Notes: generated by a model from the sequence alone, not told the origin. A stretch of DNA of 64,000 nt from Candidatus Poribacteria bacterium (GCA_965208325.1 OZ242326.1:3168001-3232000), one strand, 5' to 3'. Positions 28,109 to 56,028 are shown, counted from the first letter of the stretch. Made by a program: numbers and translations.

Positions 28109-29992
28109 ATGACGATAAGGAAATGCCACCAACCCGCAATAACGTATGATGCAAATCGTTATCTGTCAACAAGAATCGAGGCCGTCACACATTTAGTTAT
28201 TTTGTCGATTCTGATGAACTTCAGCATTTTTCCCGCAGATGCCCAAAATCAACAGGAACAGATCGTTTTTGTGTCTGAAGGGGACGACCGTGACGAAATA
28301 CATCTCAGCAAGCCCGGAGGCGGTCAAATTCAAAAACTTACTTTACAACAAAAACGCTATGCCACACCATCGTTATCGTTTGATGGAAAACGGGTCGCAT
28401 TTGCCTCGGCAGACGGTCGAAGTCGAGACTACGACATTTTTGTTATGGATATACAATCTCGAGAACAGCGTCAAGTGACATTTATAGCAAGTCGAGACCT
28501 TTATCCGTCTTGGTCGCCCGATGGAAGTCGGATTGTGTTCGCTTCGGACAGAGAAGGTGTTTTCAATCTCTACACCGTGGATGAGAATGGGGAAAACCGT
28601 ACCCGCCTGACGAATAGTTCGGGTGACGATATCCATCCTGACTGGTCTCCGGACGGGAGCAAAATCGCGTTCGCTTCCGATCAGGCAAGCGCAGTTCATC
28701 AGGTTTACTGGATGGATCCACGAACAGGGCACCAACAAAAACTGACTCAAAGCAATATAGGAATGGATTACCCGCGATGGTCGCCTGATGGGACTAAAAT
28801 AGCATTCTATTCGGCAGTTGTTGTGAAGGCATCGGGGGTCCTCAGACAAATTTGGCAAGTCAGCGCTGATGGAACCGGCTTAAAAAGTCTAATTAGAGAC
28901 GGCGAATTCAATGATGAACCCGTCCTTTCTCCCACTTTAAAGCACATCGCCTTTACATCTACTAGGGACGATAACACGGACATTTATATCTTCGATCGGG
29001 ATTCCCGGCAAATTCTGCGTCTAACTCACCACCCATCTTCAGATTCGCAGCCGAGTTGGTCGCCGGACGGTAAACACCTTGCGTTCATCTCACACAGATC
29101 GGGCAACGTTGACATTTACAGGATTAACGCCGATGGAGGCGGGCTTGTGAATCTGACTCGCAGCGATGCCGATGAATCTATGCCGGTTTGGTCTCCGAAG
29201 AAGGACATGATCTGTTTCCTGGGAAATGTAGATGGAAGGTGGGAACTTCGTGTGATGGACGGCAACGGAAAGCGTCAAAATCGGCTGGATAATAGCGTGT
29301 TTTACAGCTCACCGCCGACATGGTTGCCGCGGGGCGATAAGATTGCCTTTGTGAGTATGCCCGATCCGCTTGGTAGGGATTACCGTATCTATACGATGGA
29401 TACGGACGGGCAGAACAAGCGATTGTTGTTTAGGACAGTAGCCGGCGAAATTCGAAAAATCAGTTGGTCGGCAGATGGCGACCAATTGCTGTTTGTCCAT
29501 TACGCCAACGGGGTTCACGAAATCCGTATGCTTGATGTGATTACACGAGAGATCGACTCAATTGATTTGAAGTTGAAGGTGGTTGCGCCTGACAACGCGG
29601 CTTGGGCGCCTTTAGGCCGGACGATTGTGTTTTCAGCCTTACCAATAATAAGCCAACGGTCCACAGTACGCTATGGCATTTTCTTGATTGACGCCGACAG
29701 CGATAAACGTCAAGAAGCAGAACCTCTATTGAATACCTTCAGTCCCCAGCCGATTCGGTTCACCGACAGCAGAGCGCGTTTTTCATGGTCACCGGATGGG
29801 CAAAACTTGCTGTTTCGCCGGGGAAATTCTGAGAACCTTTACGTGACTGGATTGCGAGGGGGAGGCGTCACACGTTTTCGCAGAAATGCGCATTCACCGG
29901 ATTGGAAGACGCCTCGTGTCTGGCGGAGCGTAACTCCCAAGAACAAGCTGCAAACGACCTGGGGAGAAGTCAAAGAAATAAACCGTGAGTAA
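28109..29992 (+). CDS. TolB-like (PD40 repeat) double beta-propeller protein, copy 1, with TWG-type C-terminal motif
   Basis: About 12 P.WSPDG..IAF.S repeats; signal peptide; ends SVTPKNKLQTTWGEVKEINRE. Confidence 0.85.
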   Translation: MTIRKCHQPAITYDANRYLSTRIEAVTHLVILSILMNFSIFPADAQNQQEQIVFVSEGDDRDEIHLSKPGGGQIQKLTLQQKRYATPSLSFDGKRVAFASADGRSRDYDIFVMDIQSREQRQVTFIASRDLYPSWSPDGSRIVFASDREGVFNLYTVDENGENRTRLTNSSGDDIHPDWSPDGSKIAFASDQASAVHQVYWMDPRTGHQQKLTQSNIGMDYPRWSPDGTKIAFYSAVVVKASGVLRQIWQVSADGTGLKSLIRDGEFNDEPVLSPTLKHIAFTSTRDDNTDIYIFDRDSRQILRLTHHPSSDSQPSWSPDGKHLAFISHRSGNVDIYRINADGGGLVNLTRSDADESMPVWSPKKDMICFLGNVDGRWELRVMDGNGKRQNRLDNSVFYSSPPTWLPRGDKIAFVSMPDPLGRDYRIYTMDTDGQNKRLLFRTVAGEIRKISWSADGDQLLFVHYANGVHEIRMLDVITREIDSIDLKLKVVAPDNAAWAPLGRTIVFSALPIISQRSTVRYGIFLIDADSDKRQEAEPLLNTFSPQPIRFTDSRARFSWSPDGQNLLFRRGNSENLYVTGLRGGGVTRFRRNAHSPDWKTPRVWRSVTPKNKLQTTWGEVKEINRE

Positions 29993-30060
29993 CCTCATTA
30001 TTTTAGGCTTCATTTGCCAAATACTGCCATCACCTGTCTCGTTCGGATGAGGTAACGATT

Positions 30061-30735
30061 ATGCGAAAAAAACGCCTTCCTTTGGTGATACTACTAAGCA
30101 TAGCAGTTTCATGTATACTCTACGTTTTCATATCCAATTGGTTGGAAGAACCAGAAATCCAGATAGTATACGTGCTGCCGGATGAACCCATCAAGCCTGT
30201 CACTAAACGGCGGTCTCGGTATTATGCTGCTCATGCTCAAACCACAGGGCTAGGCGAACAACATGAGTCGATGGAAGTACAGCATGAACTACCTGATGAA
30301 ATGGAACGCGATACACGAGATTTCAACACATCGCTAGCAGAAGCAGAAAGTCACAGTCTAAATGAAGAAGGGCTTAATGAATCCGTGCAGGAAGTAGTGT
30401 CCCTTGAGGAGAGCATTGCAAAACTTAAGGAAGATAGGAAATCTGCATTGGCAACATACCAAGAAGCAGTAGATGCAATCATAAAATACGGACGCCGGGA
30501 GAACGAACTCTTGGGCGAAGACAAGTATCTAGAATTATCGGGGTACAAAGCGGATAGCCCTCAAAGAGCGGCGGTTTTGCAAGAACTTTCCGAAATTGCG
30601 TTAAAATCTGAAGAACTGGGCATGCAAAAAGAAGGAGTTAAACTAACACTCGCAGAGATTAATCAAGAACTCCCGATGCTTGAAAGCCGGCTTAAAGCGT
30701 TGCTAGCATCGGGCGTAGACAATACAGAATTCTGA
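30061..30735 (+). CDS. Hypothetical membrane-anchored coiled-coil protein
   Basis: GAGGT RBS; basic N-terminus, one TM, acidic linker, heptad-rich C-terminus; its 5' part is duplicated at 37617. Confidence 0.7.
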   Translation: MRKKRLPLVILLSIAVSCILYVFISNWLEEPEIQIVYVLPDEPIKPVTKRRSRYYAAHAQTTGLGEQHESMEVQHELPDEMERDTRDFNTSLAEAESHSLNEEGLNESVQEVVSLEESIAKLKEDRKSALATYQEAVDAIIKYGRRENELLGEDKYLELSGYKADSPQRAAVLQELSEIALKSEELGMQKEGVKLTLAEINQELPMLESRLKALLASGVDNTEF

Positions 30736-30783
30736 TTCGATAGCTAATTGGTAAAAACAACACTTGGTTAAGGAGGTGATGTA

Positions 30784-54213: not shown

Positions 54214-55011
54214 ATGTTTATTCGTAATGCAACCCAAATTTCGATTGTATTTGTGAGTTTAGTAGCCATCGGTTGGGTTTTCACACCATCCGGGCATTCA
54301 GAGATTGACCCTGATACCATTGTAGGGATGTGGCTGCTCGACGAGGATAAGGGCAAAGAAGCCAAAGATGGTTCAGGCAATGAACGTCATGGGACGTTCA
54401 CCGGGTCTCCCAAATGGAGAGAAGGTAAATTCGGCCGGAGTGTGGAGTTTTCCGGTGGAGGCGATACTGTCCGAATAGATGGATTGGGGCAGGAATTTCC
54501 CACGGAGGAAGTAACCATTACGTCATGGGTGAAGGTAGAGGGTTTCAACAATCAAGACCTTTTTAGCCTTGAGCCGCTTGAGGTCGGTAACAGGGGCCGC
54601 GTCACAGTCCACATGCCGTGGGACGGCGGTGTTCACTGGCAGTTTGGTTCGCCATTTACGGGGATTAATCCAGTTGCGCTCGACAAAGGCGTGGAAGGCA
54701 AATGGCAGCACTGGACGTTCGTCCATAGTGTTGCAGATAACGTGTTCCTTGTCTATCAGGACGGCAAGGAAGTGCAAAGAAACGTGAATTCGCAGGCGTT
54801 TGTTCAAGGCGCCGCAGATTTTCACATAGGCGGTAGACTGGGGTCCTCATTTGAGGGTTTCGTCGATGAGTTCGCAATATTCGAGGCTGTCCTTAGCCCG
54901 GCTGACATAAATAGCGTCATGGAAAACGGTCTTGAAGCTCGCGTCTTTGCGGTTTCACCAGACAGCAAACTTTCGACCTCCTGGGGTCGAATTAAAGAAC
55001 TAAGACAGTAA
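54214..55011 (+). CDS. Secreted LamG-like protein, paralog 2
   Basis: Same motifs; ends AVSPDSKLSTSWGRIK. Confidence 0.88.
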   Translation: MFIRNATQISIVFVSLVAIGWVFTPSGHSEIDPDTIVGMWLLDEDKGKEAKDGSGNERHGTFTGSPKWREGKFGRSVEFSGGGDTVRIDGLGQEFPTEEVTITSWVKVEGFNNQDLFSLEPLEVGNRGRVTVHMPWDGGVHWQFGSPFTGINPVALDKGVEGKWQHWTFVHSVADNVFLVYQDGKEVQRNVNSQAFVQGAADFHIGGRLGSSFEGFVDEFAIFEAVLSPADINSVMENGLEARVFAVSPDSKLSTSWGRIKELRQ

Positions 55012-55245
55012 ACCCAGTTGTCGTACCATCCTGGCACCCATATTTACACCCTCCGGGGGATGAGCCGTGCGGCTATAGACAGCGAAATGAGAATCTTTGT
55101 TAACCGGCCATAGGGCAAACACACGATTGCGAAGCGACGCTGACGGATGCGTAGATTGTAGCGTGCTGTAAAAACAGGATCTTAATTTGTGCTGGCGTTG
55201 TTTCGGATGTAACCTATCGGCAAACCATTTATGGGGGTTCAAACA

Positions 55246-56028
55246 ATGTTTGCTCGTAATGTAACCAGGATTTTGATTGTATGTGTGAGTTTGGTTGCCT
55301 TCAATTGGATCTTAGCAACATCAGGACATACGGAGATCGACCCAGATACTATTATAGGGTTGTGGCTGCTTGATGAAGGCAAGGGGAAGGAGACCAAGGA
55401 CAGTTCAGGGAATGAACTTCACGGGACTTTCACGGGAACCCCCAAATGGAGAAATGGCAAGTTTGGTATGGGTTTGGAGTTTCCGGGCGGAGGCGATACG
55501 GTCAAAATTGAGGGATTTGCCCAGGATTTTCCCGCGCAAGAGGTTACAATCACGTCGTGGGTGCGGTTAGAAGGGTTCAAGAATCAAGACCTTTTTAGTA
55601 TGGAACCGCTAGAGCCTAGCCGCGTCACAGTCCACTTTCCCTGGGATAACCATGTTCACTGGCAGTTCAGCAATACGGGCATAGCACCAATTGCGATTGG
55701 CGACGAGATAAAAGGTAAATGGCAGCATTGGGCATTCATTCATAGTGTCGCCGATAACGAAATGATTGCCTACCAAGATGGCGAAGAGGTCCGTAGAACA
55801 CCGGTCTCCAAGGCGTATGTTCCACGGGCAGGAAGTTTTCACATTGGGGGTAGACTGGGTTCTTCTTTTGAGGGATTCGTTGACGAAGTTGGACTATTTG
55901 AAGCTGTTCTAAGCCAAGATGACATAAAGAGAATCATGGACAATGGACTTCAGGGGGGCGTATTTGCTGTTTTACCAACTAGCAAACTTGCGGTCTCTTG
56001 GGGCAAAATGAAGATGCGAAGGGAGTGA
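55246..56028 (+). CDS. Secreted LamG-like protein, paralog 3
   Basis: Same motifs; ends AVLPTSKLAVSWGKMK. Confidence 0.88.
   Translation: MFARNVTRILIVCVSLVAFNWILATSGHTEIDPDTIIGLWLLDEGKGKETKDSSGNELHGTFTGTPKWRNGKFGMGLEFPGGGDTVKIEGFAQDFPAQEVTITSWVRLEGFKNQDLFSMEPLEPSRVTVHFPWDNHVHWQFSNTGIAPIAIGDEIKGKWQHWAFIHSVADNEMIAYQDGEEVRRTPVSKAYVPRAGSFHIGGRLGSSFEGFVDEVGLFEAVLSQDDIKRIMDNGLQGGVFAVLPTSKLAVSWGKMKMRRE

Follow-up and report, generated by a model that had tools for sequence, protein, structure and literature searches.

Ten exported proteins end in one short motif

The window analysed here is a stretch of 64,000 nucleotides from a Candidatus Poribacteria bacterium (positions 3168001–3232000 of a 4.71-Mb single-contig genome), and ten genes in it encode proteins that all end in the same 15-residue motif, hereafter the tail. 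A first-pass annotation had claimed that ten exported proteins of three different types share this gap-free C-terminal motif, and all ten open reading frames (ORFs) proved to be as described. Pfam assigned them to four double PD40 propellers, three single PD40 propellers and three Laminin_G_3 (LamG) proteins, and the motif, V-x-P-x-x-K-x-x-x-[TS]-W-G-x-[VILM]-K, closes each of them without gaps. The observation of a shared C-terminal tail is thereby confirmed.

All ten genes lie on the plus strand, and the tail coordinates that follow are approximate. The double propellers are encoded at 28109..29992 (627 residues; tail at 29912–29980, then five residues and the stop), 31702..33579 (625 residues; tail at 33511–33576, a weaker variant with I at position 10 and one residue before the stop), 33670..35559 (629 residues; tail at 35491–35556, with S for P3) and 35650..37548 (632 residues; tail at 37468–37536). 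The single propellers are found at 49481..50500 (339 residues; tail at 50423–50485, then six residues), 50625..51647 (340 residues; tail at 51570–51632, with A for P3) and 51769..52794 (341 residues; tail at 52717–52776). The three LamG proteins follow at 53257..54084 (275 residues; tail at 54010–54078), 54214..55011 (265 residues; tail at 54940–55005; the protein modelled with AlphaFold2 below) and 55231..56028 (265 residues; tail at 55957–56022). One to six residues separate the last K of the motif from the stop in these ten proteins, in keeping with the earlier statement that the motif lies within about seven residues of it. The invariance claimed for V1, K6, W11, G12 and K15 holds in all ten tails; P3 is not invariant and is replaced by S or A in two of them. 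A profile search across this range of the genome returned exactly the ten tail sites. NCBIfam gave only sub-threshold, TolB-like matches to the window ORFs, and their C-terminal 25 residues had no match at all.

The tail is terminal and modular across the genome

Searched in six frames, the strict motif matched 47 times genome-wide, in every case within 14 residues of a stop (47/47). An iterated 15-column hidden Markov model (HMM) gave 104 domain matches at E < 1, of which 103 lay within 15 residues of the stop; the sole other match was a 2.7-bit second match in a frame that already bears a terminal tail. Relaxed profile scoring identified 113 tail sites, and a 24-column profile built from reference sequences only likewise gave 113 matches in this genome at E ≤ 0.01. 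The double propeller at 31702–33579, which missed the E < 1 cut and thus stands outside the 103, was recovered with the relaxed and reference-based profiles, and visibly degenerate tails occur on several further paralogues. When back-translated into a DNA pattern, the motif occurred 57 times in this genome, compared with 0.004 occurrences expected per genome.

Signal peptides, the other half of the original claim, were supported as well. Using a heuristic of our own to score N-terminal hydrophobic stretches, rather than SignalP, we found a signal-peptide-like start in 97 of the 103 carriers, compared with 851 of the 2426 other ORFs of at least 250 residues. The six carriers without such a start comprise three fragments (105, 31 and 33 residues), two borderline cases and one ORF of 504 residues, in which the LamG domain is confined to residues 316–476. 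The short tail-ending frames, at 1552836–1552931, 3386485–3386586 and 1247900–1248217 (31, 33 and 105 residues), are probably remnants of decayed carrier genes.

With their tails removed, the carriers fell into clusters of 58 LamG and 30 PD40 proteins, one four-member family, two pairs and seven singletons. Pfam searches of the smaller groups recovered Cohesin (two proteins), 3keto-disac_hyd (three, two of them over the cut-off) and DUF3108_like (one), and gave no match for seven proteins, including the four-member family. These assignments support a modular tail, which is borne by at least five Pfam families as well as by unnamed folds. It is confined to the C-termini of proteins with signal-peptide-like starts, in line with the first-pass annotation. 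LamG homologues without the tail do exist (P0045, P0046 and P0050–P0052). Read by eye, the tail-less paralogues of carrier families are either lipoprotein-like, with a Cys directly after the hydrophobic region, or bear a C-terminal domain, and among the 103 tail proteins only about one appeared lipoprotein-like from its printed N-terminus, again judged by eye and not by a predictor. Tail, lipoprotein signal and C-terminal domain thus appear to be mutually exclusive alternative addresses.

Conservation and predicted structure of the tail

Over 98 full-length copies, a set that is partly circular in that the profile itself picked them, the counts were 98 for V1, 82 for P3, 94 for K6, 98 for W11, 98 for G, A or S at position 12, 98 for L, I, V or M at position 14 and 98 for K15. 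Past K15 the proteins extend by 1–14 residues, most commonly three; R, G, A, T and N abound in this stretch, and the very last residues vary and are polar or basic. The printed tails show no hydrophobic segment, in agreement with the earlier statement that the motif has no transmembrane helix. The conserved residues use all of their synonymous codons (four each for V1, P3 and G12; two each for K6 and K15), third-position identity among the copies is 0.34, and 97 of the 98 DNA stretches are distinct. Such free synonymous variation indicates that the tail is conserved at the protein level and is no DNA repeat. Neither NCBIfam nor Pfam has a model for it: none of 26 tails matched any NCBIfam model at E ≤ 10, and the single Pfam match among the same 26 was spurious. 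In a positive control, 14 of 14 genuine C-terminal sorting domains encoded by this genome exceeded the TIGR04183 cut-off.

AlphaFold2, run on the LamG protein at 54214..55011 with 28 homologues, placed the blocks of the core at a predicted local distance difference test (pLDDT) of about 86–96 and tail residues 247–265 below 50, with residues 252–264 drawn as a low-confidence helix. The model thus supports a flexible tail that is no integral strand of the LamG fold. The first-pass annotation had named such a strand as a way in which its reading could fail; for LamG, the only carrier modelled with its tail, this does not apply.

The low-confidence helix raises the question of whether the tail needs a reader at all. 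It could act by itself, either as a peripheral membrane anchor, that is, an in-plane amphipathic segment of the sort known for PBP5-type carboxypeptidases, or as a small self-folding cap. LamG-type tails lend this idea some substance, as L7, W11 and the hydrophobic residue at 14 follow an i, i+4, i+7 pattern with K6 and K15 on either side. In PD40-type tails, however, position 8 is P and both faces bear hydrophobic residues, and the mean hydrophobic moment over positions 6–15 reaches 0.74 for a helix but 1.14 for a strand, which gives an amphipathic helix no support. In addition, V1, K6, W11 and K15 are kept in 98, 94, 98 and 98 of the 98 profile-selected copies and the motif recurs throughout the phylum (see below), whereas generic membrane-binding segments are usually less strictly conserved. 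We regard a reader-free function as rather improbable.

There is a still slimmer chance that the tail serves as a ligand by which the carriers dock to one another, PD40 propellers being one example of a binder, in which case the proteins would form a network. The two dominant carrier families are ligand-binding folds, and the conserved W-G of the tail resembles the TolB-box peptides, which contain a conserved W-G and are bound by TolB. Against this, the LamG model shows the tail not binding in cis.

The tail across Poribacteria and other phyla

Homologues of the LamG carriers, named as Candidatus Poribacteria wherever their source gives a name, keep the tail in 30 of 32 cases, down to 45% identity. 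A wider search with the LamG alignment returned only 52 proteins, no named one of which came from outside Poribacteria, and is uninformative on other phyla. At the DNA level, the motif pattern was present in 151 of 151 sampled genomes of the phylum, spanning 22 genera and 9 families, with 3–97 sites in each; the reversed pattern, used as a control, matched once in total over the same 151 genomes. In 40 regions fetched from two distant Poribacteria, 47 of 50 profile matches lay within 15 residues of the stop, and the 24-column profile found 12–103 matches in each of five distant members of the phylum. The first-pass annotation had pointed to similar tails on Poribacteria proteins, and rightly so.

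Outside the phylum, 562 distinct genomes were sampled. The 24-column profile matched in 0 of 27 mixed genomes of other phyla and, in sets drawn from the phylum of a seed metagenome-assembled genome, in 0 of 101 (Pirellulales seed), 0 of 86 (Calditrichia), 0 of 101 (Neomarinimicrobiota) and 0 of 151 (Ignavibacteriaceae). One of 101 genomes in the set seeded by a Lentisphaeraceae assembly gave a match; it is internal, with 45 residues between it and the stop, and the last part of the motif is missing from it. We treated it as chance. These searches support a tail that is phylum-wide in Poribacteria, with absence elsewhere meaning that it was not found in the 562 genomes searched.

Relation to T9SS-type C-terminal domains

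The genome also encodes 45 proteins (58 by HMM count) with a 90-residue C-terminal domain that starts at a conserved proline-rich motif. [quoted passage not shown] Directly upstream of the domain, 14 of the 45 proteins (13 WD40 proteins and one other) carry the tail module in register, as 15 residues that end eight residues before the proline-rich motif; the remaining 31 are without it. Positions V1, P3, T10, G12, I14 and K15 align between the two contexts, while these upstream copies have L or F at position 11 and K6 is not conserved. Aligned with hhalign, the tail profile and the pre-domain segment matched over 20 columns with E = 3.3e-5 and a probability of 72%. On a 115-residue segment the motif occupies residues 5–19 and is followed by a 7-residue spacer, with the TIGR04183 match beginning at residue 27; AlphaFold2 gave the domain blocks about 79–91 and residues 1–31 a pLDDT below 50. 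A WD40 protein from a genome of a different class carries the complete motif, K6 and W11 included, with the domain directly after it.

Judging from these alignments, the tail is best described as one module that stands either alone at the C-terminus, as in the great majority of cases, or just upstream of a T9SS-type domain. The first-pass annotation had set the tail apart from the T9SS domain. In part this stands, since the tail is far shorter and matches no T9SS model; in part it needs amending, because the tail is homologous to the stretch that precedes the type-A domain in WD40 cargo.

That homology to a linker could mean that the tail is a functionless remnant, left behind once the C-terminal domain was lost. 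We regard this as very unlikely, given the protein-level conservation over free codons in about 100 paralogues and the presence of the motif in 151 of 151 genomes; moreover, in this genome K6 and W11 are better conserved in the tail-only proteins than upstream of the domain.

As for T9SS machinery, the best stretches scored 65 bits in the one SprA-like ORF (2196 residues), 104 bits among about ten PorV-family ORFs, and 282 and 257 bits in two PorU-like ORFs (2114 and 2130 residues), all of them below the curated cut-offs. Family searches for GldM and GldL found no match in the genome, and the controls were equally silent. The PorU-like ORFs, at 4022499–4027856 and 3715233–3719957, are about twice as long as the PorU model (1095 positions), and each ends in a C-terminal domain of its own.

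Gene neighbourhoods of the tail genes

Tail genes are distributed over 49 loci, 20 of which hold two to seven copies. PhyH-like Fe/2-oxoglutarate dioxygenase genes are enriched near them: of the 31 in the genome, 20 are found no more than 5 kb from a tail gene, a zone that covers 13% of the genome. In the window, two PhyH-like paralogues (PF05721, a weak match) at 56260–57042 and 57057–57848 are located directly downstream of the LamG-tail array.

This proximity bears on the idea that the tail is a site of modification or controlled proteolysis, where K6 and W11 would be hydroxylated or cross-linked, or a periplasmic tail-processing protease would act in maturation or turnover. K6 and W11 are near-invariant in the tail-only proteins and not in the pre-domain copies of this genome, as might be expected of modified residues. 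The PhyH-like proteins that were read show no signal peptide, however, and would have to act before export, and their enrichment may reflect the LamG catabolic loci and not the tail. The variable extreme C-terminus speaks against a PDZ-type domain recognising the end residues. Overall, we give this explanation only a small chance of being correct.

Genes for a membrane protein of about 645 residues with DUF6785 and DUF6784 form a family of 25 paralogues (for example at 2951903–2953828, 4666369–4668297 and 1545515–1547452), 12 of which lie within 5 kb of a tail gene, in the same 13% of the genome. PorV-family genes share loci with DUF6785 genes in four of nine cases, which suggests that these PorV-family proteins are FadL-type uptake channels; together, the DUF6785/DUF6784 proteins and the PorV/FadL genes may constitute an unnamed uptake system. 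Many LamG-tail proteins may thus work in uptake or catabolic loci, a suggestion that bears on the carriers rather than on the tail. PorV-family proteins were also considered as the reader of the tail and set aside, as their neighbourhoods are DUF6785 uptake loci; no consistent adjacency to tail genes was seen, by inspection and not by a formal test.

Cohesin domains occur in four proteins of this genome only. Two are giant multi-cohesin proteins with the C-terminal domain (3083 and 2426 residues, with nine and five cohesin matches, respectively), and two are tail proteins that consist of a signal peptide, one cohesin and the tail. Ten ORFs bear dockerins, all at sites of C-terminal-domain matches, and at 3481704–3484845 a dockerin protein with the C-terminal domain (a 605-residue frame) lies immediately upstream of a single-cohesin tail protein. 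Going by its domain composition, this set looks like a cellulosome-like surface assembly.

Taken at face value, the domain homology and the cohesin–dockerin pair invite the reading that the tail is itself a T9SS-like substrate motif, recognised by a PorU-like sortase or a PorV-family shuttle, with the tail-only proteins as short-signal cargo. Such cargo would undergo processing behind the last K and be linked to a glycolipid at the surface, or else be exported piggy-back on domain-bearing proteins. The motif does occur in register immediately upstream of TIGR04183 domains, and one distant genome preserves both K6 and W11 there; candidate SprA-, PorV- and PorU-like ORFs are present, and a cohesin-tail protein sits beside a dockerin protein that has the domain. 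There is also a precedent of sorts in Prevotella intermedia, where, according to one study (PMC11969387), a cleavage-site motif precedes motif B of the T9SS domain and cargo is modified at its new C-terminus. On the other hand, the T9SS signals known so far depend on motifs B, D and E. Even the 'short' T9SS domains of the same study retain all of these, only their spacers being shorter (PMC11969387), and the tail has none of them. Nor does the tail match any T9SS model. All machinery matches fall below curated cut-offs, with GldL and GldM unmatched where the controls were silent too; 31 of the 45 C-terminal-domain proteins lack the motif; and the PorV-family genes that sit with DUF6785 in four of nine loci point to uptake channels. 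On balance, we consider this reading unlikely.

Three further ORFs lie among the tail genes of the window, none of them with a Pfam match. Two, at 30061–30735 and 30927–31424, separate the first double-propeller paralogue from the second; one has 224 residues, a hydrophobic N-terminus and a glutamate-rich body, and the other is a cysteine-rich protein of 165 residues with a signal-peptide-like start. The third, at 52758–53276, encodes 172 residues, has two hydrophobic stretches and shares 37 bases with the end of the third single-propeller gene. Contigs from two sponge metatranscriptome runs of one study cover the PD40 and LamG tail genes at 49481–56028 in part, with an identity of 90–97%. They are sequences of relatives in RNA libraries and no proof that these genes are transcribed.

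A candidate address or retention tag

That the tail serves as a tag for address or retention, with a shared partner as its reader, has in our view a probability of roughly one half. Such a tag would be a linear peptide specific to Poribacteria, made up of the 15-residue motif and 1–14 mostly polar or basic residues, on soluble proteins that would be exported by the Sec pathway and cut by type I signal peptidase. It would stay flexible and exposed, and one shared envelope component would recognise it as an address or as a label for retention; most probably, we infer, the carriers are thereby kept at the outer membrane or on the cell surface and not released. Were the type-A domain of WD40 cargo cut at its boundary, that cargo and the tail-only proteins would share the same terminal peptide. 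A role in localisation is suggested by this common end peptide, together with the apparent mutual exclusion of tail, lipoprotein signal and C-terminal domain and the architecture of the cohesin proteins.

Several points weigh against a tag with a reader at the surface. The upstream copies in this genome have L for W11 and lack K6, and the two contexts may not share a function. Exclusivity with lipoprotein signals rests on N-termini inspected by eye without a predictor. In the PD40 propellers, the tail may be an integral closing strand, the structural modelling having covered LamG alone. No receptor, peptidase or transporter could be tied to the tail, in an analysis that did not include a search for the sortase, exosortase and rhombosortase families. 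The tail-only proteins carry no known signal for crossing the outer membrane, so that reaching the surface would require an export step yet to be explained; they could equally be periplasmic. Finally, the catabolic or uptake appearance of many loci, with their PhyH-like, DUF6785 and short-chain dehydrogenase/reductase (SDR) genes, fits periplasmic binding proteins or enzymes.

In its most specific form, a read tag would be the signal of a sorting or anchoring pathway peculiar to Poribacteria, with its own reader, serving about one in ten signal-peptide-like proteins and meeting the T9SS-like system at the point of domain removal. We advance this version tentatively, as something closer to a one-in-three prospect than to an even one.

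Full-text searches on Poribacteria secretion and sorting, on LamG and on T9SS linkers, with subscription journals not covered, listed no description of the tag. It is a real, abundant and phylum-specific feature that appears to have gone undescribed. C-terminal tags on exported proteins are known as a kind; what is new here is the architecture of the tail and the way it relates to T9SS-type domains, while its function is what we infer. In the case of LPXTG, PEP-CTERM and GlyGly-CTERM, each tag led to a sorting enzyme of its own and to rules by which surface proteomes are predicted. The Poribacteria tail is comparable in abundance, with about 100–125 genes per genome and strict phylum-wide conservation, and has neither a curated model nor a described reader. 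In these uncultured sponge symbionts it is borne by lectin-like and propeller proteins, a kind expected to meet host matrix or host glycans, and the destination of the tag would tell which of them face the sponge. The link to the T9SS offers a testable entry point, namely whether processed T9SS cargo and tail-only proteins have their ends handled alike.

Comparison with known systems

LPXTG/sortase, PEP-CTERM/exosortase and GlyGly-CTERM/rhombosortase signals are tripartite, consisting of a motif, a hydrophobic helix and a basic cluster. Like the tail, they are short motifs present in many copies on unrelated exported proteins within restricted lineages; unlike them, the tail has no transmembrane helix and no terminal basic cluster, and it has no NCBIfam match. 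The beta-signal of outer-membrane proteins, an aromatic residue at the extreme C-terminus of a beta-barrel, differs on both counts, for the carriers are soluble LamG- or propeller-like folds and their extreme C-terminus is variable and polar or basic. C-terminal amphipathic-helix anchors of the PBP5 type are conserved in pattern rather than residue by residue. The tail shows high residue-level conservation, a helical moment below that of a strand (0.74 and 1.14) and a helix that AlphaFold2 drew with low confidence.

The anchoring scaffoldins of cellulosomes combine a single cohesin with an SLH or LPXTG anchor. By analogy, the single-cohesin tail proteins may be their counterparts, with one cohesin and a C-terminal element each, and one of them adjoins a dockerin protein; the anchoring module would here be a 15-residue tag, and the cohesin–dockerin pairing is putative.

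The T9SS type-A domain (TIGR04183/PF18962; FlgD_ig, PF13860) spans about 72–75 model positions, compared with 15 residues and a short extension in the tail. Its motifs B, D and E are absent from the tail, where 15 plus 1–14 residues would leave no room for them, and it folds in models in which the tail is unfolded. In the sampled genomes of Bacteroidota and of the Calditrichia and Neomarinimicrobiota phyla, the tail motif was not found. The two nevertheless have much in common: both are C-terminal on Sec-exported proteins of unrelated folds, and the tail-only proteins end near the very point at which the domain begins.

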